DNA of 64,000 bases. Source: Candidatus Collierbacteria bacterium RIFOXYD2_FULL_45_13. Its GTDB lineage: Bacteria > Patescibacteriota > Microgenomatia > UBA1400 > MFAQ01. Both the position numbers and the translations under genes were made by a program. The notes below the pieces were generated by a model that did not search any database, was not told where the DNA came from, and was given only the letters and a program-made list of their open reading frames with translations. Positions 1,370-50,701 of the stretch are shown here, one piece after another. The stretch lies in assembly GCA_001774685.1 (NCBI GenBank), contig MFAS01000001.1:705485-769484 (forward strand), in the 5' to 3' direction. Position 1 is the stretch's first letter. Every line of letters begins with the position of its first letter.

Positions 1370-1403
1370 ATCCGTAGTTTATCACCTACCAATAGTTTTA
1401 TTG

Positions 1404-2840: not shown

Positions 2841-2879
2841 AGGTAAAAATTGATAGTTATTTGAGTATATACTGAATTA

Positions 2880-7631: not shown

Positions 7632-7634
7632 TAT

Positions 7635-11743: not shown

Positions 11744-11750
11744 AAATTCA

Positions 11751-11779
11751 TTATTACCAAACAATACCCAAATGTCAAC
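11751..11779 (-). promoter_or_regulatory. candidate sigma70-like promoter for lexA
   Basis: On the reverse strand a TTGACA sits 17 nt upstream of TAATAA, which lies just upstream of the lexA ATG. No canonical LexA box was recognised. Confidence 0.4.
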
Positions 11780-11874
11780 TAACAAAACCCAAATAGCCGA
11801 TATCCATTTCATGTATTAACCCGAAGATTCTAATAATAGTATAATTCCAGAGTACGCTAAAAAAAGGAGGACCC

Positions 11875-12495: not shown

Positions 12496-14547
12496 ATGGA
12501 CTTTCAACTAGAATCGACCTACCGACCTACCGGAGATCAGCCCAATGCTATCGAAAAACTGGCCATCTCTATCGATCAGCAAAATCCTCACCAAACCTTG
12601 GTGGGAGTTACCGGTAGTGGTAAAACCTTTACGATTGCCAACGTCATCCAAAAAACTCAGCTCCCGACTCTGGTCATGTGCCACAACAAAACCCTGGCAT
12701 CACAGCTATACCAAGAGTTCAGAGACTTCTTTCCCCACAATGCCGTCTCATATTTTGTTTCCTACTACGATTACTACCAGCCGGAAGCCTACATTCCCCA
12801 AACCGACACCTATATCGAAAAAGAAGCTGATATCAATCCGGAGATCGACAAATTCCGCCTAACTACTACGGCCAACCTACTATCACGCCCCGATAGTATT
12901 GTGGTTGCCTCCGTTTCGTGTATTTACAATATCGGCTCACCTCTTGACCAGGAAAAGAACTTGTTGCCTCTGGCCAAAGGACAGGTAATCTCTCGGGATA
13001 CCGTCCTCATGCGCCTGTCTGACCTTCAATACACCAGAACAAATTCTGAACTGACTCGGGGTATGTACCGCGCCGTCGGCAGTACCGTCCAGCTTTTTCC
13101 CTCCTACAAAGATATCATCATTTCCATGAATTTCAGTGGTAGCTCGCTGGAAAATATTGAAATTCTCGATCCGATGAACTTCACCAGGATCGACGATGAA
13201 GACCTAGACAATACCGGCTTTATCACCATTCATCCCGCCAAACTGTTTATCACCAACCCTAAAACCCAGGGCGATGCTGTTGCCAATATAAGAAAAGACT
13301 TGGAAACCCAGGTGAAAGCATTTAAAGATGCCGGTAAGATTATTGAAGCCCATCGGATCGAACAAAAGGTTAATTACGATCTCTCCATGCTCGAAGAGGT
13401 GGGCTATGTCAGCGGCATCGAAAATTATTCCCGCTACTTTGATGGCCGCGTACCGGGTTCTGCCCCATATTCCCTGTTTGAATATTTTCATTACAACGCC
13501 AAGAAATTTAACAAACCCGGTTTCCTAACCGTCATCGACGAATCCCATATTTCTCTGCCTCAAGTCAGAGGGATGTACAACGGTGATCAAGCCCGTAAAG
13601 ACAACCTAATCAATTTTGGTTTCCGTCTCCCCAGTGCCAAAGACAACCGTCCCCTAACCTACACCGAGTGGCAATCCAGAACTCCGATCAAACTCTACTG
13701 CTCCGCCACTCCCACCGAACACGAACTATCGCTCTCGCGTGGAAGCAAGATCCCCACAGTTGCGGAGCAACTTATCCGTCCCACCGGACTCCTAGATCCA
13801 CAAATACAGGTTTTCCCTGCCAAAGGCCAGATCGATCACCTGACTCAAGAAGTCATCAAAAGAACGGCCAAGGGCGAAAGAACTTTGATACTTACGATGA
13901 CCAAGAGAATGGCCGAGGATCTTTCCGATCACCTTAAAGAAAAATATCAATTGAAGGTTGAGTATCTTCACTCGGATATACATACAATTGACCGTGCCGA
14001 TATCTTGGACAAGCTACGCTTGGGCGACTTCGACTGTCTCGTCGGTATCAATCTCTTGCGCGAAGGACTTGATCTACCGGAAGTCTCATTGGTGGCCATT
14101 CTGGATGCCGATAAAGAAGGTTTCTTGCGCACTTCGACAGCACTCATTCAAACCATGGGCCGCGCCGCCCGTCACGTCAACGGTGAGGTCTATCTATATG
14201 CCGACCGCATCTCCGATTCCATGAAAATCGCCATGGAAGAAACTCTTCGCCGGCGGAAAATTCAGCTGGATTACAACACCAAGCACGGCATTACTCCACA
14301 GGGGATAGTCAAGCCAATCCGCGACCGATTATTTAAGGCCGAAAGCCAAACGCCAGCTCCCAGAATCAAAGAACTGGCCGAGCACGGCTGGAAAGAGATT
14401 GATGATATCAATCCGGAAGCCCTCACTCCTCAGAAGAAGAAAATCCTCGTCGTCAAACTAAAAAAAATGATGAACCAAGCAGCCAACTCCTGGAACTTCG
14501 AACTCGCCGCCCGCTACCGCGACACCATTCGAAAATTGGGGCAATAA
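12496..14547 (+). CDS. uvrB: excinuclease ABC subunit B
   Basis: 683 aa with the helicase motifs GVTGSGKT and DESH, and a C-terminal UVR domain (ELAARYRD). Confidence 0.95.
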   Translation: MDFQLESTYRPTGDQPNAIEKLAISIDQQNPHQTLVGVTGSGKTFTIANVIQKTQLPTLVMCHNKTLASQLYQEFRDFFPHNAVSYFVSYYDYYQPEAYIPQTDTYIEKEADINPEIDKFRLTTTANLLSRPDSIVVASVSCIYNIGSPLDQEKNLLPLAKGQVISRDTVLMRLSDLQYTRTNSELTRGMYRAVGSTVQLFPSYKDIIISMNFSGSSLENIEILDPMNFTRIDDEDLDNTGFITIHPAKLFITNPKTQGDAVANIRKDLETQVKAFKDAGKIIEAHRIEQKVNYDLSMLEEVGYVSGIENYSRYFDGRVPGSAPYSLFEYFHYNAKKFNKPGFLTVIDESHISLPQVRGMYNGDQARKDNLINFGFRLPSAKDNRPLTYTEWQSRTPIKLYCSATPTEHELSLSRGSKIPTVAEQLIRPTGLLDPQIQVFPAKGQIDHLTQEVIKRTAKGERTLILTMTKRMAEDLSDHLKEKYQLKVEYLHSDIHTIDRADILDKLRLGDFDCLVGINLLREGLDLPEVSLVAILDADKEGFLRTSTALIQTMGRAARHVNGEVYLYADRISDSMKIAMEETLRRRKIQLDYNTKHGITPQGIVKPIRDRLFKAESQTPAPRIKELAEHGWKEIDDINPEALTPQKKKILVVKLKKMMNQAANSWNFELAARYRDTIRKLGQ

Positions 14548-14551: not shown

Positions 14552-15094
14552 CTACATTTTTTTATAATCTTCTGAGCCAATTCCCTCAGTAACGTTTTTA
14601 AGAATTTCAATCATAAGATCATCTGGAATAGGATGCCCTAATTCTTTTTCTTCCTTATATTTCCAATAGAAAATTTTGCCAAACCGTAATTCATCTGCTT
14701 TTCCGGCATCTACCAATTCCTGCATTCTGTTTCCTAATTCTCGACCTAGTCCAGGATCCATCTCAACTAGCTTAAGCCAAAAACCTGCTAAATCCATATT
14801 CCTCCGCGCCAAAAAATGTCTTAATCTCGCAGAATCAGCAAATTCATCCCTTCTCGATAAAGCATTATCATCACTGCTTAAACCTCTGACTGGTTTTTTT
14901 AATAGATCCATGCAAGTTTGAACTGATTCAACAGTTGCCCCTTCTCTGTCACCAGCACCATCCATCACCGTTGCGGCCATTCTCATGGCATCATTGGCCT
15001 CAATTCCGTCTTCAGATTGTAGTCTGCCAGCATAGTTCCTTAGTGCCTCTTCAGCAAGTTCAGTGTGAGCGAAGTCTAAAAAAGGTGATTCCAT
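14552..15094 (-). CDS. hypothetical acidic protein (island edge)
   Basis: 180 aa with no recognisable motif; convergent on uvrB. Confidence 0.4.
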   Translation of the reverse strand: MESPFLDFAHTELAEEALRNYAGRLQSEDGIEANDAMRMAATVMDGAGDREGATVESVQTCMDLLKKPVRGLSSDDNALSRRDEFADSARLRHFLARRNMDLAGFWLKLVEMDPGLGRELGNRMQELVDAGKADELRFGKIFYWKYKEEKELGHPIPDDLMIEILKNVTEGIGSEDYKKM

Positions 15095-15165
15095 ATCTAG
15101 AATATATCAAACAATTGCATCATTAGGTGATTCACCTTTAATCTGAGGCAATCTATAATTACCAC

Positions 15166-15714
15166 ATGGACGAAGCAAAATTGGTGAGTAGTACTTGGGT
15201 TGAAAAAGGTGTGACTATGAAGTTTACCTGGTATCCCGGCGATAATCTGGAAAGGTTTCAACCATTCAATCAGGTATACGGTGTCGTCTTTAATTCAGAT
15301 GGTCAGATGCTTATTCAAAGAAGGGAGTTAAGACCTTGGTGCCTGGCCGGAGGTACTGTCGAAGAAGGGGAGACAGCCGAACAAGCTCTCAGACGAGAAC
15401 TAATTGAAGAAGCCGATGTCACCATCAAAAATCTCATCTTACTCGGTGGTCAAAGAGTGCAATTTCCCGGAGGTCACAACCCGAATCCGACCAAACGCTT
15501 TACTGGCGATGATTTTTATCAACTCCGTTATTACTGTGAAGTTGATGAGGTTCTACCTCAAACACCGGACCCCGATCACGATATCATCAACGAACGGCTC
15601 TTTGTTCCTCAAACAGAAATAAACAAATACCTGGGCTGGGGTGCCACGGGACAAGTGATCTTTGATCAAGCCATCGCTCTTTTTCATCAACTCCACCCTG
15701 CTATACTAAATTAA
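15166..15714 (+). CDS. NUDIX hydrolase (paralog A)
   Basis: Nudix box GGTVEEGETAEQALRRELIEEADV, matching G-x5-E-x7-REUxEE. Confidence 0.8.
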   Translation: MDEAKLVSSTWVEKGVTMKFTWYPGDNLERFQPFNQVYGVVFNSDGQMLIQRRELRPWCLAGGTVEEGETAEQALRRELIEEADVTIKNLILLGGQRVQFPGGHNPNPTKRFTGDDFYQLRYYCEVDEVLPQTPDPDHDIINERLFVPQTEINKYLGWGATGQVIFDQAIALFHQLHPAILN

Positions 15715-15723
15715 TGCTTACTG

Positions 15724-15966
15724 GTGACGACGAGAAAAAATATAACCCTGATCATTGATGGAATTGTTGAAGCATTAGAGGGTTTGGTTCTACCCAGATT
15801 CGACAAGATGGACGGGAGATTCGACAAGATGGATGGCGACGTCGCCGAACTTAAACAAGCGGTCGAGATTCTTGATTCAGATATGGGTGGAGTCAAGATG
15901 AGACTCAAAGTGGTCGAAAACAAACTGGACACGCTACTCTTTTATTTGTTCTCATCTTGGGTTTGA
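15724..15966 (+). CDS. small coiled-coil protein with a tandem heptapeptide repeat
   Basis: 80 aa. The DNA has a 21-bp near-perfect tandem duplication encoding [14 protein letters not shown]. Its 3' end overlaps the convergent CYTH gene by about 25 bp. Confidence 0.35.
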
Positions 15967-16472
15967 ATTTTATCAAAAATGGTAAACACTTCCTCTCCAG
16001 CTACTTCCACCTTATCTCCCAAAAGATCAATCAATTTCTGAACATCCGCTTCGTTCGGACCTTCAATCTCGGCAATATGTAGCTCTACCGGCTTCGAAAA
16101 ACCAATAAAGGCAAACACTGTTTTGTCCTTGTTCCAAATTTCTCTCACAGAAAAGTTTTCCTTTATCAATTTACATCCGAGAGAAAAAAGTATTTCCTTC
16201 ATATTTTCCGGATTATCTATGGATACATTTAGCTCTCGCCTTGTCCAGACACCTGCGTTATCCCGCTTGCCGTCTTTCAAAGTCAGCTCTTTAAACTCAC
16301 CGAACACTTCTCTCAGTCGATACAGGCTTTGGATATTGGTCATAGTATCCGCGCCAGTTCCAAAATACGAATCTCTAATTTCTTTGAATTTAGTAAAAAC
16401 AAAACCATTCGCCTTGAGCCAATCAACCACGGCTTCTCGATTTGTATATTTCAGTTTGACTTCAATTTCCAT
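15942..16472 (-). CDS. CYTH domain protein (CyaB/thiamine-triphosphatase-like)
   Basis: Starts MEIEVKL, the ExExK signature of CYTH, and is 176 aa, the typical CYTH size. Confidence 0.7.
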
Positions 16473-16488
16473 ATTATTTAATTCTTAG

Positions 16489-17232
16489 TTATTTCGTGAT
16501 TACTTTTGTTGCTTTTATTAAGTAAAACTTAGGCTTCATGAAAGCTTCGTAATAATCTTTTAATCCACTCCTCTCTGCTTCCTCGTCTGGTTTCATGTCT
16601 AAGTACTCAGTTATATATAGATTATTCTGAACGAGGGCGCCAACTAAAGTTTGGAAAGTATGGTGATACTGAATTTGTTTAAGGTTAAGAGGAGCCCATT
16701 CTCTTTCAAATTTCCCTTCTTCAAAATAGTTCCCAAGTAGAAATGCTTGTGGTTCTGTTCCTTTGACCTTTGTAGTCAAAAAAGAATATGGAACATGGCC
16801 TGAAAAAAGAAAGCTACCACCGGGCTTTAATACTCGGCAAACTTCAGAAAACGCTTTCTTTAAATCGGGAAGGTAGTCAATCACGAGTCCCGAAAACACA
16901 TAGTCGAAACTTGAATTTTGATATGGTAATTTCTCAACAGATCCAACCTTGAATTCAACATTTGGCAATTCTCTTTCTGCAATCTCAATTAACTTCTCAC
17001 TTTTATCAATACCAGATACTTTTGCTCCCAATCTAACAAATTCTTTTGTATATCTACCACTACCACAGCCTAAATCCAAGACATTCTTATCTTTTAAGTC
17101 CTGACTATTTAAAAATCTAATCGTATGAGGATATTCCAGCCATTTATTCCAGAAGTTATGACTGTCATCCATGTAGTTATGGTAGCTACCAGCAAACTGG
17201 TCGTAAGATGTTTTCACTTTTAAATTATTCAT
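16489..17232 (-). CDS. class I SAM-dependent methyltransferase
   Basis: Motif I VLDLGCGSGRYT with an acidic residue after beta-2 (GIDKSE). Confidence 0.8.
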   Translation of the reverse strand: MNNLKVKTSYDQFAGSYHNYMDDSHNFWNKWLEYPHTIRFLNSQDLKDKNVLDLGCGSGRYTKEFVRLGAKVSGIDKSEKLIEIAERELPNVEFKVGSVEKLPYQNSSFDYVFSGLVIDYLPDLKKAFSEVCRVLKPGGSFLFSGHVPYSFLTTKVKGTEPQAFLLGNYFEEGKFEREWAPLNLKQIQYHHTFQTLVGALVQNNLYITEYLDMKPDEEAERSGLKDYYEAFMKPKFYLIKATKVITK

Positions 17233-17263
17233 GCTTACTCAAATTCTAGCGCCAAATAAGACT

Positions 17264-18727
17264 TTACTCCAGTGCCAAGCCTGCCGCGACGGAAGTAAAT
17301 GGGTCAAACTCCGTAACTTTCTCTTTTCCAAAAATTTCCTCCAGCATTTTTTCGAATACTGGTACCAAAGAAGACCCTCCGGTTCTCACCACCACATCTA
17401 TATCCTTTGGCTCCAAATCGGCGTTCTTGATTGTTCTCAGGACTGTCTCTCTGACAGCCAGAACCCTCGGCTGGATCATCTTCTCAAACTCCAATCGAGT
17501 AATTTCCTCATCAATATCAATAAGGCCGTCTTTAAACACAATCCTAGCCTTTTCGTTATTGGTCAACAGCTTTTTTGCCACCTCGATTGCCTCATACATC
17601 TCAAACCCCAAATTCTTTTGAATCAAATATAGAAGCCACTCAATTGCTTTTGGGTCGGTATTTTTGTATTTTACATTTCCTGTTAGGAAACCAATATCGT
17701 CAGGATTATTTAAGTTCGGGATTCCAAACCAAGACCTTAGTCCGGCAATGATATGCCCCGGCATTCTCATCTGCATCTCGCCAAAGCGGACTTCAGTACC
17801 GAAATGCTTACCCAGTTTATGATAAAAAATATCCGAGTTAAGTAGATCTCCTCCCACATATACCCCGTCGGTCGCCAATACCTTGTACCCACTATTTTGA
17901 TTTTTTGAATTTTCGAGTTTTTCTTCGCCCACTTCCATTATTGTTGTATCGAATGTTCCTCCTCCAAAATCAAAAACGAGAATCATCTTCCCTTTACTGG
18001 GAAACTTGGACAAATAGTATTTGGCTGCCGCCACCGGTTCAAACTGGAATTTCACCTCATCAAACCCTGCGGCTCGTATTGCCTTCTCCAGTCGGTCCTG
18101 TGCGGCCATATCGGCCTCAGGACTAGTTGAAAACGAGACGGGTCTACCACAAACCACCGATTTTCTTGTTTCTCCGGCTATCAAATCCGCTGTTTTCTTG
18201 AGTTCACTCACAAACTTTCCAATCATTTCCTCTAGGGTATATTCTTTTCCAAAGACTCGCGCGCCCTTATAGTGGGGGGACTTTAAAGCGGTCTTGAGAG
18301 CGTGAAAAAGCCTTCCCGTACCAAAATCCACCTCCTCGTAGTAATCGGGGATATCTCCAGTCACCACCTTCCCGCTGGGAGTAGTATACAAAATGACATT
18401 ATTGTATTTACCCGTATAGATCCTTCGTTTGACGCCTTCATGCCTGGATTTATTGTCATTTAGGTAGGTTTTTACCGCCAGATTACCGGTAGCAACTTTC
18501 TCTTCACCTTCGTACCACACCTGATCGAACATGAAAGTATTAGTCGTTAGCTGTTCTTTGTTTACCTTATTCGAAATCATTAGCTTCCTGGGGTAGAAAT
18601 ACAAAGCAGATCTGGCCACACCTTTGTTCTCGGCTGCTTGGTCAACAGGCATCAAAACCGCCTCACCGTTGACGAGCGTGCTCAGAGAAGTATTTGTGGT
18701 ACCAAAATCCAGTCCGTAAAAAGCCAT
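17264..18727 (-). CDS. Hsp70-family actin-like ATPase (NBD only, non-canonical)
   Basis: Phosphate-1 motif GLDFGTTNTS and phosphate-2 motif VFDFGGGTFD. It lacks a typical DnaK substrate-binding domain and lid. The listed ORF starts at an upstream TTG; the ATG at 18727 is the likely start. Confidence 0.7.
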   Translation of the reverse strand: MAFYGLDFGTTNTSLSTLVNGEAVLMPVDQAAENKGVARSALYFYPRKLMISNKVNKEQLTTNTFMFDQVWYEGEEKVATGNLAVKTYLNDNKSRHEGVKRRIYTGKYNNVILYTTPSGKVVTGDIPDYYEEVDFGTGRLFHALKTALKSPHYKGARVFGKEYTLEEMIGKFVSELKKTADLIAGETRKSVVCGRPVSFSTSPEADMAAQDRLEKAIRAAGFDEVKFQFEPVAAAKYYLSKFPSKGKMILVFDFGGGTFDTTIMEVGEEKLENSKNQNSGYKVLATDGVYVGGDLLNSDIFYHKLGKHFGTEVRFGEMQMRMPGHIIAGLRSWFGIPNLNNPDDIGFLTGNVKYKNTDPKAIEWLLYLIQKNLGFEMYEAIEVAKKLLTNNEKARIVFKDGLIDIDEEITRLEFEKMIQPRVLAVRETVLRTIKNADLEPKDIDVVVRTGGSSLVPVFEKMLEEIFGKEKVTEFDPFTSVAAGLALE

Positions 18728-18981
18728 AAAACATTTGGAGGTTAACCTAAAAATTGTACAGCATGTGTTGCATAATTGCGCAGCTAAAAACTTACCAGAA
18801 TGAAAGAACACCAACTCTTCTGTCAGGAGGACTAATCATCATTTAGATAACATTATTTACACCGAAAACAAATCCAGATTAAAGTGTTCATTTTCATTTC
18901 ACAGTCTGCTTTAATTTTAAACCATTACCTAATAATGTATTTAGCTAGAAATCAAGATCAGAGACTGTAAATATAATGATA

Positions 18982-19500
18982 TTATTTTTGATATTTTATT
19001 GCTGCCCTCAACATTTGTCTTCCATGTTCACCCCAGTTCACATAAAAGTTCGCTTCGTCTGGTTTGACGAATCTTATTTCATCGATAGTACCATCCTCTG
19101 GATCCGGTGTTCTGATAACTGTTCTGTCGACAACACTTACAGTACATAATTGGAAGAAATCATTTTCGTTTTGATCATTCAGGGGACCTCGGACTTTAAA
19201 AGCTCCAAAAAGATGAATGCCCTTAGGGATTATTCCTGTTTCCTGAGTCATCTCTCTAGTTACTGTTTCTTGAAAAGTTTCGTTATTTTCGGGGCCACCT
19301 CCTTGAAAGCGCCAAACCCCATTTTCATTTTGGATCAGAACATGACCTTCACCATTGAAACATATACTATGTACCAAGGAATACGGTTTGAATTGTGTCA
19401 AGTCGTCTCCCTCAATCCATGTATAAAGATATTGTTTACCTTCCCACTCTACAATTTCGTTCTCCACAGGTCTATCGCATTCAGACATATCCAATATCAT
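18982..19500 (-). CDS. NUDIX hydrolase (paralog B of 15166-15714)
   Basis: Nudix box FQGGGPENNETFQETVTREMTQETGI, and C-terminal similarity to paralog A. The start at MILDM lies one nucleotide after the stop of the upstream gene, suggesting translational coupling. Confidence 0.7.
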   Translation of the reverse strand: MILDMSECDRPVENEIVEWEGKQYLYTWIEGDDLTQFKPYSLVHSICFNGEGHVLIQNENGVWRFQGGGPENNETFQETVTREMTQETGIIPKGIHLFGAFKVRGPLNDQNENDFFQLCTVSVVDRTVIRTPDPEDGTIDEIRFVKPDEANFYVNWGEHGRQMLRAAIKYQK

Positions 19501-19501
19501 A

Positions 19502-20170
19502 TTACAAATCAATAGGCAGGGTGTGTTCAATCCTGTATTTACTTTCTTCTGATTTATAAACATTCTTCCTATCTATTAAAATACCTTTTATAATACATAT
19601 CTCAGCAAAAGTGTCTAGATTTGTAACAAGGTCATCGATAAAAATAATATTTTTCGATAATACGATTTTGTTTATCATCAAAAAATAGAAATTCTTATCA
19701 TTTTTTAAAAAACCAATTTCATCAGAAATAAAAAACTGTTTGGCATAAGAGTTTAAATTCAGCAATTCTAAGGTTTTTCTTCTGCTGGGACGTCCATCTG
19801 AAATAATATAAACATTCCCCCCCTTTTTGTAATTTTCGAGTGCCGGTATGGCATCAGGATATAGTACATGAGCCAGTGTTCGATACTTGCTTATTGATAT
19901 CTCCCTTGCCTTATCTTCAAAGTTATTAAGGTTCAGATAAGTATTTAAAAAACCACCAAAATGATGTTCGGTTAATTTTAGTTCTTCTTTGAAGTCTTTA
20001 AAGGTAAGAGATCTATCATATAGATTACTCGACAGGCAATAGCTTTCATATTTACCCTTCAAGTCGCGATCGGAAACCCCTAAAATATTTTCCATGATTT
20101 GTAGATCAGTTTCAAATTCCGGTAATATTCTGTAACCTAATGTCTCTGCGAAATCTATAAATATATCCAT
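19502..20170 (-). CDS. HAD-like hydrolase with a degenerate motif I
   Basis: Motif II YIISDG, a Lys region, and motif IV IIFIDDLVTN are present. Motif I reads FIDFAET, so the second Asp is missing and the protein may be inactive or a variant. Confidence 0.35.
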   Translation of the reverse strand: MDIFIDFAETLGYRILPEFETDLQIMENILGVSDRDLKGKYESYCLSSNLYDRSLTFKDFKEELKLTEHHFGGFLNTYLNLNNFEDKAREISISKYRTLAHVLYPDAIPALENYKKGGNVYIISDGRPSRRKTLELLNLNSYAKQFFISDEIGFLKNDKNFYFLMINKIVLSKNIIFIDDLVTNLDTFAEICIIKGILIDRKNVYKSEESKYRIEHTLPIDL

Positions 20171-21750
20171 TATTCTGAACCTGATAGAAACTTAGCGATT
20201 AAATCAGAATTTATCTCAAATTCTTTTCTGATTTCTTCCATAGTTCCACGCCTCGTGGGATGATTTATATGATATACTCCACAAGCTAGCACGGGTATTA
20301 TAAAGGCCCCAGCTGAAATCGCCTTTATTCCGATAAGAGAATCTTCCAGTCCATAACCGCTAAATTTATTATCAAAACCTCCAGTGGCGTAAAAAAGATT
20401 CTTTGGAATTGACAAATTGTGACCAACAACCATTGAAGGTAGATCAAAATTGCCGAGTCTTCTCCCAAAACCCAATGTCCTAAAGTAATTTGTTTCTGAC
20501 AGTATCGAAAAAATATCCCCTTGCGCTAAATAGTTGTTGGAGTAATATCCCATAGTGTCCTTATCAATGTACTTGGTAATTCTCAGGTCACTGCTATAGT
20601 TTGGCATCACAACACCGCGCTTAACTGCATCGTAAGATATTCTCACATCAGTTGGTTCAGCATTCTCTTTGAAACTTACAAGCAGGGCTTTATTAACAAG
20701 TTTGTGCCTCAGCAGATGCTCGTATAAATAATTTGGTGTTAGTACCACATCACCATCGATAAACAATAGAATATCATTTGAAGAAACTGCGGCACCGATG
20801 TTCCTCGTTTGTGAGATACCTGAATTTTTTTCTTTTCTAATAATAATGGGTTCATAGCGCAAATCATCCTGAACCTTTTTGATAATTTCCGAGACAGGTT
20901 CTTTTGATCCATCATCTACGACAATGACCTCAAATTTAATTACATCGGGAGTTTGTCGGTCTATTGATTTTAAAGTTTTGATTATAGATTCCCCTAGATT
21001 AAATGCCGGAATGATTATCGACACTGATGGCAAATCCGCGGTATAAATCTTGGGAGTCGGGGCAGAACCGAGCATTTTGTATCCGGTTATTTGTTCAAAA
21101 ACTGTAACAAGCTCACCGTAATCATTAGAAACGGCGCTTATTTGATGAAAATAGGAAGTGGTGGTAGACAAAGATAAGCTCAGATTCACCTGTTTGCAAA
21201 AATTAATAACCTTTTCATTCAATACTCCGAGATCATCGACTAAGCTTTCATCAACAATTTTACTGGTTCTATGGATAAGCTTATCTTTATCAATCTTATT
21301 CTTAAGTATTTTTTGAATTGTCTCTGATTTAAACTTAGCATCTTCGTGGCACAGAATTTCAAACTGATGTTCAGAAATCAGAGTATCACTAAGGTAAATA
21401 ACGCTAGCCTCTTGATCCTCCGGGAAAGAGAGCTGTATTACGTTACTGAGAGCAGCACTCTTTAATCCTGCACCAAAAAGCACATTTAATAACGTACCTA
21501 AAAATTTGGATTTAAATTTCGCTTCTCTCCAGGTTTCTGTGGTCTTCACCGAGATACGACGTCCCAAGAATAGGTTGTTTTCATCACACCTAAGTCTGAT
21601 TTCATTTTCGAAATACAATGTCAACACTCTCTTAACACGCGGAAACCCAAGTTCGTTAGACAAATCACGTATTAGTTGATTCACTTCAGCGTCATCTTGA
21701 AAAAGACAAATATTGTTAATTAAATCGGATTTTGACGCATCGTATCTCAT
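20170..21750 (-). CDS. family 2 glycosyltransferase with a 240-aa N-terminal domain of unknown function
   Basis: GT2 core (VSIIIPAFN...VIVVDDGS...FIDGDVV) in the C-terminal half; the N-terminal half has no recognisable motif. Confidence 0.7.
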   Translation of the reverse strand: MRYDASKSDLINNICLFQDDAEVNQLIRDLSNELGFPRVKRVLTLYFENEIRLRCDENNLFLGRRISVKTTETWREAKFKSKFLGTLLNVLFGAGLKSAALSNVIQLSFPEDQEASVIYLSDTLISEHQFEILCHEDAKFKSETIQKILKNKIDKDKLIHRTSKIVDESLVDDLGVLNEKVINFCKQVNLSLSLSTTTSYFHQISAVSNDYGELVTVFEQITGYKMLGSAPTPKIYTADLPSVSIIIPAFNLGESIIKTLKSIDRQTPDVIKFEVIVVDDGSKEPVSEIIKKVQDDLRYEPIIIRKEKNSGISQTRNIGAAVSSNDILLFIDGDVVLTPNYLYEHLLRHKLVNKALLVSFKENAEPTDVRISYDAVKRGVVMPNYSSDLRITKYIDKDTMGYYSNNYLAQGDIFSILSETNYFRTLGFGRRLGNFDLPSMVVGHNLSIPKNLFYATGGFDNKFSGYGLEDSLIGIKAISAGAFIIPVLACGVYHINHPTRRGTMEEIRKEFEINSDLIAKFLSGSE

Positions 21751-21758
21751 ATTTGTAA

Positions 21759-22268
21759 TTATTTAATATTTCTGTCCAGACCAAAAAGGTTTTTGTATTG
21801 GACGAGATCTAATTCCAAAAATTGATATTTTTTTGGATCAAAAAACATTTCAGGGTAAAAGTTTGAACTATCCCGCAATTCCTCTTCAGTTTTTAGTATA
21901 CATTTTTTAATTTTTTCATATCCTGTATATTCTTTCTGAACTATTTCAATTTCATTAAATTTCATTTCCGTTTCACATTCAAAAAAGAACTCAAAGTTTC
22001 TATCAAATGGGGATACGGTTTCTTTTACAAATCTCAATTCTTTGGCTACAAAATTCTTTATGTTTAATTCTTCACCAATTTCCCTGTCTAGTGTTGCAAT
22101 CAAGGATTCGTTGGATTTTGCGTGACCTCCAGGGAAAAGTAGATAATCATTTCTTGAGGCGTTCATCTGCTCAATAACTAAATATTTTTCATCAAACTTG
22201 AACACGGCTCTGACAACCACAACAATTTTTTCGTTATTCATATTAGTTTGAATACCATCTGTTAACAA
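21759..22268 (-). CDS. NUDIX hydrolase (C)
   Basis: Nudix box FPGGHAKSNESLIATLDREIGEELNI. Confidence 0.75.
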   Translation of the reverse strand: MLTDGIQTNMNNEKIVVVVRAVFKFDEKYLVIEQMNASRNDYLLFPGGHAKSNESLIATLDREIGEELNIKNFVAKELRFVKETVSPFDRNFEFFFECETEMKFNEIEIVQKEYTGYEKIKKCILKTEEELRDSSNFYPEMFFDPKKYQFLELDLVQYKNLFGLDRNIK

Positions 22269-22881
22269 AGGGGATAGAACCCTTAAGATTATCTAAATCC
22301 TGTTTTGGGATAAGTAAGTTCATAACTCTTTTTGTGTCATCCTTATCATCAGGAACATGGATAAGGTTAGAAGCGAATAAGTCAATACCAATTTGCTTTG
22401 TGGTCACAGGATCTAGGGTCCCGTTCTTCCACGCTTCGAGCGTTTGATCATCGATCGGATTACTGCTACCAAATCTTCCCCGAACTCCCTCGCCTGTTCT
22501 AACACTGCCCTTGAGTTTTTTTAATAAAATTGGTGCGTCCTTAGCCGCTACGAGCATGAGTCCAATCGGACCTGTTTGAAAATGCTCCTGAATATATTTT
22601 AAAAACTCCTCATGCTTCTGTTCAGGGTATAACTTCTTAACATCCTCAGGTTTAATACGGATTTCGGTAAATCCAAAAAATTCCACAGGTTTATCTGTCA
22701 TTTGTTCCAACTCTCGCTGGATAAAATCCCTAATGGGCAAATCAAGAAGCGAGTTGGTGGAATCAGGTTTAAAGAGAACCATGCCAATCCCATTTTTTTC
22801 TTCCTCGGGAGTTAATATGTCTTCGTAAAAATCTCCCATTTCACTAAATCTATTTTGAACATAATCTGGAGTTATTTCCAT
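22243..22881 (-). CDS. nucleoside diphosphate kinase-like protein (divergent)
   Basis: An MVLFKPDS region corresponds to the IKPD motif, and NLIHVPDD corresponds to the NxxHGSDS active-site His motif. At 212 aa it is longer than canonical NDK. Confidence 0.5.
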   Translation of the reverse strand: MEITPDYVQNRFSEMGDFYEDILTPEEEKNGIGMVLFKPDSTNSLLDLPIRDFIQRELEQMTDKPVEFFGFTEIRIKPEDVKKLYPEQKHEEFLKYIQEHFQTGPIGLMLVAAKDAPILLKKLKGSVRTGEGVRGRFGSSNPIDDQTLEAWKNGTLDPVTTKQIGIDLFASNLIHVPDDKDDTKRVMNLLIPKQDLDNLKGSIPFVNRWYSN

Positions 22882-23750
22882 ATTTCCAATTGTTTTATAT
22901 AATCCACAACCGACTCGGGCGATCCTTGAATTGAGTAACAGGGGATTTTTTGAGCAACTTCTTTAACGGATTGTATTCTATGGTCACCATTCGCACGACT
23001 ATCAATTGAAGGCACAGCGATATTACCATCTTTAACTCTTCTGGAGATTGCTCTAATTTTTCTACCTAGTTCTTCATATAAATGCCACTCAAATTTTTCC
23101 GGTCTCCAAAGATCTGTCGACATCTCAGCACCATTTATTCCAAAACCGTAGACAAATAAAGCGATCGGAACAGGTTCAGAATTATTAGTTGCTGAATGGT
23201 AATAAGAGTCCTCTTGTTTGTCGGTGATCTGTCTCTTCCAATAGTCTTTATCTAGATAAATAAAGGGGATTCCTCCAAGTATTTCCATATTCCTCGCATT
23301 AACTAATGTCTTCTCATCGGAATAGAAAGACCCATCATTTGCGAGCAGTTTTGCAAGCCTTGTCTTACCCATCCCACTTGCACCTCCCCAAAAGATTACA
23401 GCCTTGCCTTTATAAACTGCCGTAGCGGAATGAATACAAAAAATGCCTTTCTCCTGTCTGACTCTTTCAAAAACCAACTCTATTAATGAGATTATCTCTT
23501 TTTCGCTTACTCCTTTTATGCCTATTTTAATCTTCGGATAATCTTTAAATTCAAAAAAAACTTCTTGATTCAAAAATTCTACGCTAGCCTCAATATTATT
23601 ATCAGTCGCAAGAGAGAATCCTGGAATATATTTACTTAAAAAATCATTATTTTGTATTGTCTCCGCCAATTCACCACTCTCAAAAATCACTCTTAGTGTT
23701 AATCCTGCTGAAGAAAGGTATAGCTCTTTATTCTTTGATGGCATTTTCAA
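22872..23750 (-). CDS. HPr kinase/phosphorylase C-terminal-domain-like P-loop protein
   Basis: IHSATAVYKGKAVIFWGGASGMGKTRLAKLL matches the HprK-type P-loop region (VLIxGxSGxGKSE). Confidence 0.55.
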   Translation of the reverse strand: MKMPSKNKELYLSSAGLTLRVIFESGELAETIQNNDFLSKYIPGFSLATDNNIEASVEFLNQEVFFEFKDYPKIKIGIKGVSEKEIISLIELVFERVRQEKGIFCIHSATAVYKGKAVIFWGGASGMGKTRLAKLLANDGSFYSDEKTLVNARNMEILGGIPFIYLDKDYWKRQITDKQEDSYYHSATNNSEPVPIALFVYGFGINGAEMSTDLWRPEKFEWHLYEELGRKIRAISRRVKDGNIAVPSIDSRANGDHRIQSVKEVAQKIPCYSIQGSPESVVDYIKQLEIWK

Positions 23751-24846
23751 AATAATTTTCTAAATTCATTGCTTTTATATCCCAATTCCAGGTTTCGGAT
23801 TTTTTTCTGGCCTCATCGCCAATAGTGTTACGGAGAGTTTCATCCAATAGTAATTTTTCAATCTCGGTCGCGAGCGATACGGCATCCCGCGGATTCGCAA
23901 GTAGACCATTGACACCATGGTCTACAAATTCAGGCATGCTACAACTATTTGTTGTAACGGTTGGTATACCACAAGCCGCAGCTTCAAGCATCGTCGTTAG
24001 CACACCCTCACGATCAAATGATGGGGCAGAAAAAACTTTCGATCTGTTGTACAAGGAGAGTACATCTTCTTGGGGGACATAACCAATAAATTCGATATTG
24101 TCTGAAAGTTCTAGTCTATCAACCAGCTCTACCAACGACTCTTTCTGATTACCTTTTCCGGCAATCACCACTTTTGGATTTAGTCCTTTGTTAACTAAAA
24201 TTTTAACAGCATCGACAAGATAGTTAACACCTTTTACTGGAACCAGTCTGCCAAAATACAAAATATCTATGTCTTTGGTAACTTGTATTGGATGATAGTT
24301 TGTCGTATCTATCCCATTTGTGAAGGGTATATATTCAATTCCGCCAACCATTTCTGACCATTTCTGTCCAATATATTTTGATACTGAAATATATTTTACA
24401 TTTGGAAATGAGAACCAGATTTTGTCGTAATACTCTGCTTCAGCAGGAACACCGTGCAGAAACATTACTGCGGGGAACTTAATATTTGCAGCCAAAATAT
24501 CCACGTTGTAATGGACATTAAGTACGTCATAAATATTTTTATCGAAATAATTTTGAGCTAATCTTCCCATGTGAATAGCTTCGTAGTCCCATCTCAGCTG
24601 ATTTGTTCCGGGTTTTTCCTCATATATCCATCTGAGGGATGTGGGTAATTCAAGATAGATGACTTCAACGCTTGGATTCACTGAGAGATACTTGTCAAAA
24701 TATTCTGAGTTACCATCGGGATGGCGGGAAGTAACGACCGTTACCTTATGTCCATGTAAAGCAAAATTTCTAGCCATTTCCAGTGGAACCACCTCCCCAC
24801 CCCCAACATAATAACTTACCCTAGGCTGATAAATGGCTATTTTCAT
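23728..24846 (-). CDS. family 4 (GT-B) glycosyltransferase
   Basis: 372 aa with the C-terminal EGVLTTMLEAAACGIPTVTT motif (E-x7-E region) typical of GT4. Confidence 0.8.
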   Translation of the reverse strand: MKIAIYQPRVSYYVGGGEVVPLEMARNFALHGHKVTVVTSRHPDGNSEYFDKYLSVNPSVEVIYLELPTSLRWIYEEKPGTNQLRWDYEAIHMGRLAQNYFDKNIYDVLNVHYNVDILAANIKFPAVMFLHGVPAEAEYYDKIWFSFPNVKYISVSKYIGQKWSEMVGGIEYIPFTNGIDTTNYHPIQVTKDIDILYFGRLVPVKGVNYLVDAVKILVNKGLNPKVVIAGKGNQKESLVELVDRLELSDNIEFIGYVPQEDVLSLYNRSKVFSAPSFDREGVLTTMLEAAACGIPTVTTNSCSMPEFVDHGVNGLLANPRDAVSLATEIEKLLLDETLRNTIGDEARKKSETWNWDIKAMNLENYFENAIKE

Positions 24847-25334
24847 ATCAAATTATCTTTTAGAGTCATAATCTGTGCTTTTCCTGTCGGGCTGTTTGCC
24901 CAGCTTATATATTGGTCAAACTCGTCAATATCTATTAGTTTACGTTCGAAAATCTCGTCGTCGGGAATAAATTCCGGTAAATCACTCAATATTACTAAAA
25001 ATCTTAATTGTGAACTTGATTTACCCTCAACCCCTTCATTCTGAGGATCCGAAACTTTCATCCAACCTATCAATTTAGACTTATACCTCTCTTTGATTTC
25101 AGCTTCCTCGTCAAGTTCTCTTGCAAGAGCTTCTTCTACACTCTCTCCCTCCTCTGGGTGACCTCCTGGAATTGCCCACCCTCTCTTATTTCTCACAATA
25201 ATCAGCTTCCCTTTATATATACAGTAAGCACTCACCTGGCTGACTTTTAATGTGGGGTCAGGATTTCCTGAAAACCAGCTAATAGTAATATTACGATCAT
25301 CAAAATTGACTACCTCAGTTGCTAATGGTTCCAT
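24843..25334 (-). CDS. NUDIX hydrolase (D)
   Basis: Nudix box IPGGHPEEGESVEEALARELDEEAEI. Confidence 0.8.
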   Translation of the reverse strand: MEPLATEVVNFDDRNITISWFSGNPDPTLKVSQVSAYCIYKGKLIIVRNKRGWAIPGGHPEEGESVEEALARELDEEAEIKERYKSKLIGWMKVSDPQNEGVEGKSSSQLRFLVILSDLPEFIPDDEIFERKLIDIDEFDQYISWANSPTGKAQIMTLKDNLI

Positions 25335-25336
25335 TA

Positions 25337-26050
25337 TTATTTGTTACTAAGATTGTTAAATGATTCCAATAATACTATCTTAAAACCTCCGACAAAATTG
25401 GCCATTGCCTTTTGTGAAAACCAACCTAAGGGTAGAAAAATCACGCGAAATACTTCATAAAACAGTTTTGATCTCTTTGGTAGTGGAATATATCCCTCCT
25501 TCAAGATTTTAAAACCGGCAATCGTAAATAATTTATTTAACTGCTTTTCATTATAGTGATGAATATGACCATATCTCTCCTCGCTTTCCTTCCACGGGTC
25601 TCTAATGCCGAGTTTTCGGATAATTTGATTATCTAGAAAAGAATCTTCCATCGGAACTTTAATACAAACCAGCTTACCCAATTCACCCATGCGTTTTAAC
25701 AAACCCAAGTCATCTTCTACGTGTTCAATGATATCAATGCCTGTAACTAAGTCAAAATTTGCCTTAGGGGAGTACTTATATATATCCTCGCAAATCCACT
25801 CAATTTCATGGTCCGTATCATTCTCCTTCGCCACTTTTATCATATCTTTGGAAATATCAATTCCTACAGCCATATCTGGCTTTAGTTTTGCATTGAATTC
25901 CATGGTAATACCACCTGCACCACAAGCTACATCCAGAAGTGAGTCTATTTTTAGTGAACCTAAAAAATTTAAGACTTGCTTAGCTTTTAACTGAGCTTGT
26001 TCCAGATGAAGTCCCGGATTTTTTAAAATATATTCTTTTTGATAATCCAT
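25337..26050 (-). CDS. class I SAM-dependent methyltransferase
   Basis: Motif I LLDVACGAGGIT. It is the first gene of the overlapping operon. Confidence 0.8.
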   Translation of the reverse strand: MDYQKEYILKNPGLHLEQAQLKAKQVLNFLGSLKIDSLLDVACGAGGITMEFNAKLKPDMAVGIDISKDMIKVAKENDTDHEIEWICEDIYKYSPKANFDLVTGIDIIEHVEDDLGLLKRMGELGKLVCIKVPMEDSFLDNQIIRKLGIRDPWKESEERYGHIHHYNEKQLNKLFTIAGFKILKEGYIPLPKRSKLFYEVFRVIFLPLGWFSQKAMANFVGGFKIVLLESFNNLSNK

Positions 26051-43355: not shown

Positions 43356-43475
43356 CTCTCGGTCACCACCTGCTGGTGGTGCCTCAAGACCCGGCTCAGC
43401 GCCGTCGCGCTTCTGCCATCCTCGCTCGCCCAAAATAACATTAAAAATCTCCCCACAAGGGAGAGATTTTCAATG

Positions 43476-43549
43476 TGACTCGGGGCGGACTCGGACCGCC
43501 GACCTACTGCTTAGAAGGCAGTCGCTCTATCCAGCTGAGCTACCGAGTC
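43476..43549 (-). tRNA. tRNA-Arg(TCT)
   Basis: Acceptor GACTCGG/CCGAGTC, D-arm AGCTCAGCTGGATAGAGC, anticodon stem ACTGC/GCAGT with loop CTTCTAA, and T-stem GGCGG/CCGCC. Confidence 0.8.
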
Positions 43550-43554
43550 AGGTG

Positions 43555-50257: not shown

Positions 50258-50261
50258 GTTG

Positions 50262-50292: not shown

Positions 50293-50305
50293 GTGGGGAA
50301 AATAT

Positions 50306-50635: not shown

Positions 50636-50701
50636 TGGACCTCCTAAGAATTGAAGGGTACAGTGACAAAGATATCACCAAATCCCCACCATTGTCTATT
50701 G

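Follow-up and report, generated by a model that had tools for sequence, protein, structure and literature searches.

A nine-gene operon between uvrB and uvrA of Collierbacteria is the largest version of a rare Patescibacteria cassette combining glycosyltransferases, a P-loop kinase and Nudix hydrolases

The stretch of DNA analysed here (the window, 64,000 nt) contains an island region, positions 14552-26050, located between uvrB (12496-14547) and uvrA (26217-29141), both on the forward strand, with lexA (11123-11812, reverse strand) and uvrC (30794-32131, forward strand) as further flanking genes. The uvrB-uvrA interval contains 15 ORFs, all at the positions given in a preliminary description of this DNA, and every domain call made there was reproduced by profile searches; a convincing membrane segment was predicted in none of the 15 island proteins. 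The AT-richness of the island relative to the uvr flanks, previously judged by eye, is borne out by sliding-window GC and by GC3. GC is 0.34-0.41 at 16-26 kb vs 0.44-0.48 in the flanks, this being the 10-kb segment with the lowest GC in the 64-kb window (0.375, against a window mean of about 0.428, sd 0.020), and GC3 of the nine operon genes described below is 0.28-0.37, as opposed to 0.55 in uvrB and 0.49 in uvrA. Composition is nevertheless uneven across the island, with the Hsp70-like gene (GC3 0.475) and NudA (0.40) both looking native. At the island borders there is neither a tRNA nor an integrase, and flanking direct repeats are likewise absent.

The nine genes in question occupy 18982-26050 on the reverse strand in the order MT1-NudD-GT4-kinase-NDK-like-NudC-GT2-HAD-NudB, and neighbouring genes either overlap or are at most 8 nt apart, forming one translationally coupled operon. 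MT1 (25337-26050) is a class I SAM-dependent methyltransferase (Pfam Methyltransf_23/25/11, E 2e-14), which reaches no NCBIfam equivalog and has orthologues at the same position in loci L005, L008, L025 and L027. Directly upstream of GT4, NudD (24843-25334; Pfam NUDIX, E 4.6e-13) has an intact box, GHPEEGESVEEALARELDEEAEI, and belongs to a cassette-specific Nudix clade that keeps REUxEE and has conserved motifs of its own (W, SQVSG, W..PGGHPE and QLR); the nearest solved relatives of this clade are MutT, Ap6A and RppH-type enzymes (E of at least 1e-5). The GT-B glycosyltransferase GT4 (23728-24846; Pfam Glycos_transf_1, E 4e-41), the invariant neighbour of the kinase, has BshA, PimB′, MshA and sucrose-phosphate synthase as its closest solved relatives by sequence; its EX7E pair (E280/E288) is conserved, and R85 is the sole invariant basic residue in its N-terminal domain. 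The NDK-like phosphotransferase (22243-22881; Pfam NDK, E 1.7e-7) carries an insertion of about 30 aa and preserves family-wide the KPD motif and NLIH175, an NxxH motif with the catalytic His. NudC (21759-22268, alternative start 22241) represents a second, distinct Nudix family (Pfam NUDIX, E 5.5e-7, with a weak Nudt16-like match), its box intact and its orthologues present only in nine-gene variants. In the two-domain GT2 (20170-21750), an alpha/beta N-terminal domain (residues 1-240) without a match in Pfam precedes the GT-A catalytic domain. The HAD-IA family protein (19502-20170; Pfam Hydrolase, E 2.8e-6) has DFAET as motif I, in which the second Asp, the general acid/base, is missing; this Asp+2 is replaced in all seven subfamily members, with D6, T10, K156, D179 and D180 kept. 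The final gene, NudB (18982-19563, alternative start 19500; Pfam NUDIX, E 2e-14), is of the NudA/NudD type and has an orthologue at the same position in L005. Pfam E-values of the four NUDIX proteins of the island range from 5e-7 to 3e-17. All four Nudix boxes had been described as intact; three do carry REUxEE, but NudB reads REMTQE, with Glu changed to Gln, vs REAIEE in its Shapirobacteria orthologue. A promoter proposed for the gap between NudB and the Hsp70-like gene could not be upheld, as 33 sigma-70-like matches compare with 33.1 expected from shuffled sequences.

The remainder of the island, on the uvrB side, is resident in Collierbacteria and comprises NudA and the Hsp70-like ATPase, along with small cargo that varies (such as CYTH, MT2 and an acidic ORF). 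The Hsp70-like (YegD-like) ATPase (17264-18727, reverse strand; NCBIfam PRK11678, E 6e-39, under the model's cut-off) consists of the nucleotide-binding domain only, and has more than 1,700 relatives in Patescibacteria. NudA (15166-15714, forward strand; Pfam NUDIX, E 3e-17) is syntenic by uvrB in three Collierbacteria, with 71-75% identity to its orthologues in L025 and L026. MT2 (16489-17232, reverse strand; Pfam Methyltransf_11, E 6e-26), another class I SAM methyltransferase, is similar to methyltransferases located upstream of the cassette in L010, L013 and L042. The CyaB-like CYTH (triphosphate tunnel) protein (15942-16472, reverse strand; Pfam CYTH, E 1.2e-8) reaches 56.1 bits with TIGR00318, the CyaB model (cut-off 57.95), and has its N-terminal ExExK motif at residues 2-6; L026 carries a 61%-identical copy elsewhere. 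Neither MT2 nor CYTH has a counterpart in the related locus L025, and both are separate additions. The small tandem-repeat protein reported earlier does contain the RFDKMDG heptad twice, but its 80-codon ORF (15724-15966, forward strand), which overlaps the 3′ end of the CYTH gene, is a doubtful gene with no family match and no homologue in L025 or L026. The acidic 180-aa hypothetical protein (14552-15094, reverse strand; GC3 0.29) likewise has no match in Pfam, NCBIfam or PADLOC and no homologue in these two loci.

The island thus consists of two layers, the resident segment and the nine-gene operon, and its initial treatment as a single 11.5-kb unit needs revising: the AT-rich stretch is real but composite, since the Hsp70-like gene and NudA adjoin uvrB in two other Collierbacteria (L025 and L026), one of which has no operon, and CYTH and MT2 arrived separately. 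Horizontal acquisition, previously suggested by AT-richness, proved half right. The operon is compositionally foreign and matches Shapirobacteria in GC; however, another Collierbacteria species also has it at this site, with protein identity of 61-77% (67-94% for the flanking genes), so that any acquisition is older than the divergence of the two species.

Comparison of 32 non-redundant loci, 22 of which are well covered (at least five upstream ORFs), shows that the operon is the expanded, largest version of a rare conserved cassette, which occurs almost only in Patescibacteria, ultra-small symbiotic microbes, apart from distant relatives, one of them archaeal-looking. The components that stay constant are GT4, a second glycosyltransferase of the GT-A (GT2) type, a Nudix hydrolase, a PEPCK/HprK-fold P-loop kinase and a phosphatase. 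The last is in most cases a HAD, with a histidine phosphatase taking its place in some. An NDK-like phosphotransferase or NMP-kinase-like protein is often added, as are SAM methyltransferases. The kinase is accompanied by GT4, Nudix and a GT2-type glycosyltransferase in all 22 well-covered loci, by HAD in 19, by an NDK-like protein in 14 and by a methyltransferase in seven; GT4 is present in 30 of the 32 loci overall. Identical nine-gene order is seen in Shapirobacteria (L005, L008 and L027) in a different genomic context, while the second Collierbacteria locus, L025, has eight of the nine genes. Proteins resembling NMP kinase or thymidylate kinase recur in L011, L012, L052, L056 and L062. Several cassette genes are fused: GT2 to Hydrolase_3 (L010, L018 and L054), GT2 to NUDIX (L019), a Cof-type HAD to NUDIX (L056), and an RHGE-motif domain to NUDIX (L055). 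The Cof-type HADs of the cassettes retain DxDGT. In the commonest cassette version, the 330-aa GT2 ends in a hydrophobic helix (KD19 1.85), which may serve in membrane attachment; GT2-HAD fusions place such a helix between two cytoplasmic-type domains. In other genomes, the cassette is surrounded by housekeeping genes. Conservation of the gene neighbourhood, which the preliminary description had left to be checked, extends to about 30 independent loci, with fusions in some of them tying the parts together, and, in agreement with it, no known pathway or defence system of this composition was matched.

The 290-aa two-domain cassette kinase (22872-23750, reverse strand; start at 23744 or 23690 in other gene calls) had been called HprK-like, and it does give weak matches to HprK-related models. 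In fold it comes nearest to PEP carboxykinase. The whole protein matches PEPCK better than HprK/P, and Hpr_kinase_C is matched by only four of 26 members, with E of at least 0.03. It retains the Walker A motif together with D145 and K147. A precomputed Pfam match assigns it to ScmC, a family whose name comes from a RiPP-type cassette. Distant relatives of the kinase keep the same partners, with HAD and GT4 in L060 and Nudix, GT4, GT2 and a thymidylate-kinase-like protein in L062. A search of 2.9 million viral contigs returned no relative.

We tentatively read the cassette, at somewhat less than an even chance, as a cytoplasmic glycoside pathway that proceeds via a phosphorylated intermediate and has its own nucleotide recycling. 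The earlier suggestion of a pathway for a nucleotide-linked sugar or glycan survives in its general form, given the co-occurrence of two glycosyltransferases, kinase, phosphatase and Nudix in about 30 independent loci and in fused genes. The product would be a soluble glycoside or short oligosaccharide. The kinase would produce or maintain a phosphorylated acceptor, most likely a small hydroxy-acid or sugar; the GT-A enzyme and GT4 would each add one sugar from an NDP-sugar; the phosphatase would strip the phosphate at the end, and the methyltransferase would O-methylate the product, while on the nucleotide side the Nudix hydrolases and the NDK-like protein would clear, recycle or limit NDP and NDP-sugar. 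Fusion of a synthase to a phosphatase is a typical feature of two-step glycoside pathways. Counting against a glycoside pathway are the substrates of characterised HprK-type kinases, which are proteins or peptides and not metabolites, the HAD of the window without its general acid/base Asp, the possible membrane attachment of the 330-aa GT2 through its helix, and the GT4 N-terminal domain without a clear phosphate-binding patch.

Modification of a protein or peptide appears unlikely. In this reading, an HprK-like enzyme would phosphorylate Ser/Thr, GT2 and GT4 would glycosylate the substrate, possibly on or near the phosphate, with a ppGalNAc-T-like GT2 recognising it through the N-terminal domain, and the phosphatase would reverse the reaction. 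HPr kinase homologues from lasso-peptide clusters phosphorylate the Ser at the C-terminus, the resulting phosphate being glycosylated afterwards in the case of pseudomycoidin (PMC8498205); the ScmC match and the extra 240-aa domain of GT2 point the same way. However, no conserved small ORF, leader peptidase, cyclase, radical SAM or PqqD was found beside the kinase in the 32 loci, the better PEPCK match and the poor representation of Hpr_kinase_C speak against this reading, and fusions of phosphatase to GT2 and Nudix are typical of metabolite pathways. Nudix is found fused to GT2 (L019) and to phosphatases belonging to unrelated superfamilies, one in L056 and another in L055; such fusions fit cleavage of a diphosphate followed by dephosphorylation, as would be expected if the sugar were attached to a nucleotide and extended there by the glycosyltransferases, or activated by the kinase and NDK-like protein, with Nudix yielding glycosyl-1-phosphate and NMP and the fused or adjacent phosphatase freeing a methylated glycoside. 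This route, close to the first of the two earlier hypotheses, would also account for Nudix being as invariant as the glycosyltransferases and for the recurrent nucleotide kinases. It is still rather improbable, as no locus contains a sugar-1-phosphate nucleotidylyltransferase, no sequence feature links the NudD clade to NDP-sugar hydrolases, and the route has no characterised precedent.

Envelope synthesis, in which a membrane- or wall-bound acceptor (glycolipid, teichoic-acid-like polymer or lipid-linked glycan) is decorated with transient phosphorylation of the glycan, we consider improbable as well. Similarity of GT4 to PimA/PimB′ and TarM in sequence and of GT2 to TarS, TarP and K4CP in fold, the hydrophobic helix, and surface-protein genes near some loci (e.g. 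L006) are in its favour, but the conserved neighbourhood includes no flippase, polyprenyl-phosphate transferase, ABC exporter or ligase, all 15 window proteins are predicted to be soluble, and in GT2-HAD fusions the helix is flanked on either side by a domain of cytoplasmic type. Least probable of all is nucleotide signalling or anti-phage conflict, the second earlier hypothesis, whereby CYTH generates a signal that Nudix enzymes degrade and the kinase and NDK-like protein modify. Nucleotide-handling domains are indeed abundant (CYTH, four Nudix, NDK-like, P-loop kinase and Hsp70-like ATPase), the compositional anomaly is real, and GT4 and the Nudix proteins match GT4-conflict (weakly, E 1.2e-6) and the PADLOC candidate PDC-S07 (E 1e-7 to 6e-10). 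Yet generic GT4 models match GT4 far better, PADLOC recognised no system and gave generic fold-level matches (SAM-binding domain, Nudix model), and CYTH and the Hsp70-like gene lie outside the conserved cassette, which has no effector, sensor or toxin domain. With no viral homologue, housekeeping neighbours and vertical stability between two species, the cassette is most likely not a defence system.

For the favoured glycoside pathway, known glycosylglycerate pathways provide a comparison. They require no dedicated kinase, Nudix or NDK, which are invariant or frequent parts here, and these parts are therefore only loosely explained; among curated functional family models, no cassette enzyme reaches the cut-off (GpgS 23 vs 262 bits, BshA 80 vs 274, MshA 80 vs 463). 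The proposed logic is nevertheless shared with mannosylglucosylglycerate synthesis, in which GpgS is the GT-A enzyme, MggA the GT4 enzyme and MggB the HAD-like one, sometimes in a single operon (PMC3736172), and with the start of mycobacterial methylglucose lipopolysaccharide synthesis, a pathway in which Rv3032 is a glycosyltransferase and Rv3030 a methyltransferase, GpgP being known in both HAD and histidine-phosphatase forms (PMC3240985).

The AT-rich island at 14552-26050 is flanked by uvrB (12496-14547, plus strand) and uvrA (26217-29141, plus strand), with lexA (11123-11812, minus strand) and uvrC (30794-32131, plus strand, downstream of a transglutaminase-like gene) also in the places assigned to them in the preliminary description, and the 15 ORFs which it located in this interval were all recovered, as were its domain calls. 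These comprise four NUDIX proteins (NudA-NudD), two class I SAM methyltransferases (MT1 and MT2), a GT4 glycosyltransferase, an NDK-like protein, a CYTH protein which carries the ExExK motif and is borderline against the CyaB model, a YegD-like Hsp70 nucleotide-binding domain, and a P-loop protein at 22872-23750 (minus strand; hereafter the kinase) with weak matches to HprK-related kinases. Sliding-window GC content of 0.34-0.41 over 16-26 kb, versus 0.44-0.48 in the flanks, bears out the AT-richness noticed by eye, and this stretch is the lowest-GC 10-kb window in the 64 kb (0.375; mean 0.428, sd 0.020). The Nudix boxes, initially described as intact in all four proteins, are so except in NudB, which has REMTQE instead of REUxEE (the box of its Shapirobacteria orthologue reads REAIEE), and the promoter proposed for a gap in the island was not upheld, with 33 promoter-like matches versus 33.1 in shuffled sequences; promoter and terminator scans yielded background levels only. 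An 80-codon ORF at 15724-15966 (plus strand), which overlaps the oppositely oriented CYTH gene at its 3′ end, contains a duplicated heptad (a 21-nt direct repeat at 15796-15836) and has no homologue in two related Collierbacteria loci, L025 and L026. A second AT-rich patch at 47-50 kb (GC 0.365-0.384) harbors an 816-aa ORF (47323-49773, minus strand) with no Pfam match, adjoining an 868-aa Kelch-repeat / Big_13 / CarboxypepD_reg protein (44645-47251), which is probably a surface protein.

As the most distinctive protein, the kinase was chosen to anchor the search for homologous loci. Its family comprises 27 clusters in 5.8 billion proteins, all from Patescibacteria, 17 loci in 185,579 species genomes, all of them CPR-type MAGs, and 33 metagenome loci; 2.9 million viral contigs contain no relative. 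When 1.84 billion representatives were searched exhaustively with a profile, 696 sequences reached E <= 1e-3, and 123 passed a limit of E <= 1e-30. Calling of ORFs, followed by clustering and labelling against the window proteins, yielded 32 non-redundant loci, and among the 22 of these with at least five upstream ORFs the kinase is accompanied by GT4, Nudix and GT2-type glycosyltransferase genes without exception (22/22 each), by a HAD phosphatase in 19, an NDK-like gene in 14, and a SAM methyltransferase in 7. The commonest cassette consists of GT2 (330 aa), a Cof-type HAD (268 aa), NDK-like, Nudix, GT4 and kinase genes. The exact nine-gene order of the window operon (MT1-NudD-GT4-kinase-NDK-like-NudC-GT2-HAD-NudB; 18982-26050, minus strand) recurs in Shapirobacteria loci L005, L008 and L027 in an unrelated genomic context, and the window operon is an expanded form of the cassette. 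Conservation of order across phylum-level CPR lineages, together with gene fusions, led us to reject the notion that these are unlinked housekeeping genes; the cassette is, at the same time, less exotic than the first reading suggested.

Fusions between partners include GT2-Hydrolase_3 (540-612 aa; L010, L018 and L054), GT2-NUDIX (466 aa; L019), Cof-type HAD-NUDIX (395 aa; L056) and, at L055, a domain with an RHGE...PLTxxG motif joined to NUDIX, the called start falling just downstream of RHGE. The recurrence of Nudix fusions to glycosyltransferases and phosphatases suggests that glycosyl transfer is coupled to nucleotide turnover. Partners of the histidine-phosphatase type are found at L007, L021 and L055. 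The variant shared in the same order by L007 (4833-8406) and L021 is devoid of the NDK-like gene and has three extra genes upstream of Nudix, coding for a 371-391-aa protein with no family match, a histidine-phosphatase-family protein, and a 277-280-aa protein, also with no family match, whose N-terminal SRSGHH appears to resemble a sulfotransferase PAPS loop. Even distant relatives of the kinase retain cassette partners: L060 (GCA_040960625.1, JBFOMW010014193.1, 1851-4601) contains a HAD, a kinase relative, a convergent GT4 and a polysaccharide deacetylase, on a contig whose S13_N/S15 ribosomal protein and RIO1 kinase suggest an archaeal (DPANN-like) host, while in L062 (Logan SRR21462135_125742, 1094-6278) the 639-aa protein P0354 is a fusion of a distant kinase relative to a BpsA_C domain, which is branched-chain polyamine synthase-like and of methyltransferase fold, followed downstream by Nudix, GT4, GT2 and thymidylate-kinase-like genes.

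The GC content at third codon positions splits the island genes into groups, being 0.28-0.37 in the nine genes from MT1 to NudB, 0.32 in MT2, 0.29 in the acidic ORF, 0.39 in CYTH, 0.40 in NudA and 0.475 in the Hsp70-like gene, with uvrA at 0.49 and uvrB at 0.55; the island is composite. Members of the Hsp70-like family occur widely in Patescibacteria (more than 1,700 relatives), and those on two Collierbacteria-type contigs, L025 and L026, are 75% and 74% identical, respectively, to that of the window. On L025, the order is uvrA, MT1-NudD-GT4-kinase-NDK-like-NudC-GT2-HAD, Hsp70, Nudix, NudA orthologue (on the opposite strand) and uvrB, and neither MT2 nor CYTH is present. On L026, it is uvrB, NudA orthologue, Nudix and Hsp70, and the operon is absent, being replaced by an inorganic pyrophosphatase, two radical SAM genes, a DUF2064-Nudix fusion and CYTH. 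The L026 cargo (Ga0172375_10000119, 1336-9518) also includes a 261-aa unknown protein; its DUF2064/CofC-like-NUDIX fusion measures 404 aa, and its CYTH is 61% identical to that of the window. From these two arrangements, the Hsp70-like gene and NudA beside uvrB emerge as the resident part and the remainder as variable cargo, and the uvrB-adjacent site appears to be a hotspot of small enzyme cassettes. Operon proteins of the window and L025 are 61-77% identical and flanking proteins 67-94%, which, together with the shared site, indicates that the operon was in place before the two species diverged. Of 12 hosts examined, 11 have an operon richer in AT than its flanks; in the remaining one, that of the Shapirobacteria locus L005, the two match (GC 0.379 in the operon versus 0.380 in the flanks). 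This pattern is compatible with, and does not prove, an old transfer from a Shapirobacteria-like donor. Of the horizontal acquisition put forward in the preliminary description, the compositional deviation stands; tRNA and repeat scans of the borders showed no tRNA within 8 kb and no flanking direct repeat, there is no integrase, and the site is occupied in the second species as well. The 11 tRNA genes of the window form three clusters (34499-35221, 43475-43638 and 50186-50919), none of which adjoins the island.

The AF2 model of the kinase is confident (pLDDT 92) and displays a P-loop fold of the PEPCK/HprK type, with the Walker A motif GGxxGxGKT, D145, K147, W222, H223, R233, R237, D250 and R258 invariant in the family. 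Sequence models of HprK, PEPCK and zeta toxin touch it only via the P-loop: in Pfam, 26 members gave only weak P-loop matches to Zeta_toxin, PEPCK_ATP and Hpr_kinase_C, the latter in 4 of the 26 (best E 0.031; not significant), and a PDB sequence-profile search returned P-loop noise only and no HprK. The weak NCBIfam matches to HprK-related kinases A and B are reminiscent of HprK/P and of the HPr-kinase homologues in lasso clusters, but the HprK matches span only 118-145 of the 292 residues, and the kinase is not accompanied by an HPr gene, a precursor peptide or lasso machinery. None of the 32 loci contains an HPr or PTS gene, and RiPP precursor or maturation genes (lasso B/C, radical SAM/SPASM, PqqD) are not conserved beside the kinase in these loci, its only link to RiPPs being a precomputed match to PF27840 ScmC. 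It is certainly not an orthologue of ATP-dependent PEPCK, differing in size (about 290 versus about 530 aa) and sharing 11% sequence identity; the description that fits it best is that of a miniature PEPCK/HprK-fold kinase, to which we assign no substrate. By analogy, glycerate or another small carboxylate would fit well into a PEPCK-like pocket, although this is only a lead. Just upstream of lexA-uvrB, at 5355-10414, the window encodes a PEP-utilising dikinase (PPDK/PEP synthase type), enolase and cofactor-independent phosphoglycerate mutase, in an arrangement syntenic in L025 and L026; 3-PGA, 2-PGA and PEP, which these enzymes handle, are possible acceptors for a PEPCK-fold kinase, and the proximity may be coincidental.

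The window GT2 (526 aa; model pLDDT 88) has invariant DxD-type aspartates and a fold nearer to K4CP and ppGalNAc-T. Its residues 1-240 match no Pfam family and are predicted, in a confident model, to form an alpha/beta unit, which in profile-profile comparison bore no relationship to the kinase family. The 330-aa GT2 of other loci has a single hydrophobic C-terminal helix; PDB searches with this protein and with the cassette Cof-type HAD gave nothing informative. The GT4 enzyme possesses the EX7E pair, and BshA, PimB′, MshA and sucrose-phosphate synthase are its nearest solved sequences, but it scores far under every curated equivalog model, including those for bacillithiol and mycothiol synthesis (79.8 bits versus a cut-off of 273.7 for TIGR03999, and 79.9 versus 462.5 for TIGR03449), and the loci contain no LmbE-type deacetylase or Cys ligase. 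A candidate phosphate-binding basic patch in its N-terminal domain was not borne out, R85 being the sole invariant basic residue there. None of the glycosyltransferases reaches the family scores of GpgS (GT81) or MpgS (GT55/78).

The NDK-like protein has the catalytic His of NxxH, the KPD motif and the Arg of RGxF, with K38-P39-D40, R134, N172 and H175 conserved to 90% or more across 17 family members; since it scores 23.9 against the NDK equivalog cut-off of 202 and carries an insertion of about 30 aa ahead of the His, we consider it NDK-like rather than an ndk orthologue. The NudD clade combines a complete Nudix box with clade-specific motifs and showed no tie to any known substrate class. 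The Cof-type HADs have a canonical DxDGT and match the S6PP and MPGP models weakly (TIGR01486 MPGP: E 0.008, 15.5 bits, cut-off 165). The window HAD (19502-20170) is of type IA with a degenerate motif I, DFAET, and in its subfamily (window, L005, L008, L023, L024, L025 and L027) the second, general acid/base Asp of motif I is always absent, the variants being DFAET, DFAKT, DLGDT and DLGNT, while the nucleophile Asp, Lys and DD motif are kept and a GRPSR loop is conserved; judging from these residues, the reaction it catalyses may not be that of an ordinary phosphatase. No convincing membrane segment was found in any of the 15 island proteins.

Overall, the cassette is a co-inherited and partly fused set of cytoplasmic proteins: a kinase, two Leloir-type glycosyltransferases, a phosphatase and Nudix, with an optional nucleotide kinase and methyltransferase. 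Arguing by analogy, we tentatively propose, at somewhat less than an even chance, that it assembles a soluble glycoside via a phosphorylated intermediate. The kinase would supply or maintain a phosphorylated acceptor, to which the GT-A enzyme and GT4 would add one sugar each; the phosphatase would finish the product and the methyltransferase decorate it, while the Nudix and NDK-like enzymes would turn over NDP or NDP-sugar. Weak points of this scheme are that its dedicated kinase, Nudix and NDK-like parts have no counterpart in the precedents, that the large GT2 looks more like enzymes acting on polymers or polypeptides, and that HprK-type kinases characterised so far all act on proteins or peptides (PMC8498205).

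Phosphorylation and glycosylation of a protein or peptide, which follow each other in that order in pseudomycoidin (PMC8498205), would be in keeping with the lineage of the kinase and with a ppGalNAc-T-like fold, but the loci contain neither a conserved substrate gene nor RiPP machinery, and we consider it unlikely. The Nudix-phosphatase fusions would be best accounted for if an oligosaccharide were built on a nucleotide and released at the end by Nudix and then phosphatase; such a route, however, is without precedent and lacks a nucleotidyltransferase, and is rather improbable, as is synthesis of an envelope glycoconjugate, for which transport or lipid-carrier genes would be wanted and are not conserved. 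The preliminary description also envisaged a nucleotide-derived signalling or conflict system, inspired by its gene content, but we find it highly improbable in view of the absence of recognisable defence components and of viral relatives of the kinase, the housekeeping neighbourhoods, and the position of CYTH and the Hsp70-like gene outside the cassette; on the same evidence of components, viral relatives and neighbourhoods, a defence system was rejected. PADLOC-DB 2.0 gave partial matches only, of SAM-binding domains to mad2 and of Nudix domains to PDC-S07, and nothing for the kinase, GT2, GT4, NDK-like, HAD, CYTH or Hsp70-like proteins. Nucleotide-centric genes and low GC content need not, in annotation, mean a defence island.

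The gene set is not described in any curated model, defence catalogue or paper that we found, the literature yielded nothing relevant on the gene combination or on ScmC, and none of the cassette proteins reaches any curated functional model; the cassette is a real, conserved and uncharacterised set of episymbiotic microbes. Genomes of Patescibacteria are tiny, and a conserved enzyme cassette of five to nine genes is therefore a notable investment. The novelty of the cassette would lie in the product, the miniature PEPCK-fold kinase family, and the fixed coupling of glycosyl transfer to Nudix/NDK-like nucleotide turnover. The fuller proposal, which we consider doubtful, is that of an undescribed (phospho-)glycoside characteristic of episymbionts of ultra-small size (Patescibacteria, perhaps also DPANN-like archaea), made by miniature PEPCK-fold kinases acting on a small acceptor, with built-in Nudix/NDK-like recycling; if true, such recycling would make Leloir glycosylation cheap in organisms without their own nucleotide synthesis. 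Identification of the product, for which the roles of compatible solute, storage or signalling glycoside, and host-interaction factor are candidates, would add one more metabolite or glycan to a very short list for Patescibacteria, and would provide a function for a new branch of the PEPCK/HprK kinase fold.

Comparison of the putative glycoside pathway with known systems places it closest, by analogy, to the phosphorylating mannosylglucosylglycerate route of Petrotoga and Rhodopirellula, in which GpgS, the GT4 enzyme MggA and the HAD-like MggB, encoded by one operon in some genomes, form a soluble cytoplasmic product (PMC3736172). As would be the case in the cassette, a phosphorylated acceptor there receives one sugar from a GT-A enzyme and a second from a GT4 enzyme, before a HAD-like phosphatase completes the sequence. 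The cassette proteins, however, are below the GpgS, MpgS and MPGP family scores, the GT2 fold points toward K4CP/ppGalNAc-T instead, and the route itself does without a dedicated kinase, Nudix, NDK-like enzyme or methyltransferase. The first steps toward methylglucose lipopolysaccharide in mycobacteria offer another apparent precedent, in which a glycosyl-phosphoglycerate primer, a phosphatase, an elongating glycosyltransferase and SAM-dependent O-methylation operate in the cytoplasm (GpgS Rv1208, GpgP Rv2419c, Rv3032 and Rv3030, respectively), and GpgP exists in both HAD and histidine-phosphatase forms (PMC3240985). Cassette partners are likewise of the HAD or histidine-phosphatase type, but there is no detectable orthology, the cassette is without acyltransferases or branching enzymes, and the mycobacterial system lacks Nudix, NDK-like and kinase components.

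Synthase-phosphatase fusions are also known from compatible solute synthesis, where sucrose-phosphate synthase carries an SPP-like domain and mannosylglycerate and glucosylglycerol are made by bifunctional enzymes. The fused enzyme for glucosylglycerol is mentioned in PMC10873239, and the cassette fusions of GT2 to Hydrolase_3 at three loci are of similar design, although their glycosyltransferase family is unlike SPS (GT4), TPS/GgpS (GT20) or MpgS (GT55/78), and a hydrophobic helix lies between the two domains. The parts of the cassette come from familiar superfamilies, and its overall logic resembles that of known glycoside pathways.
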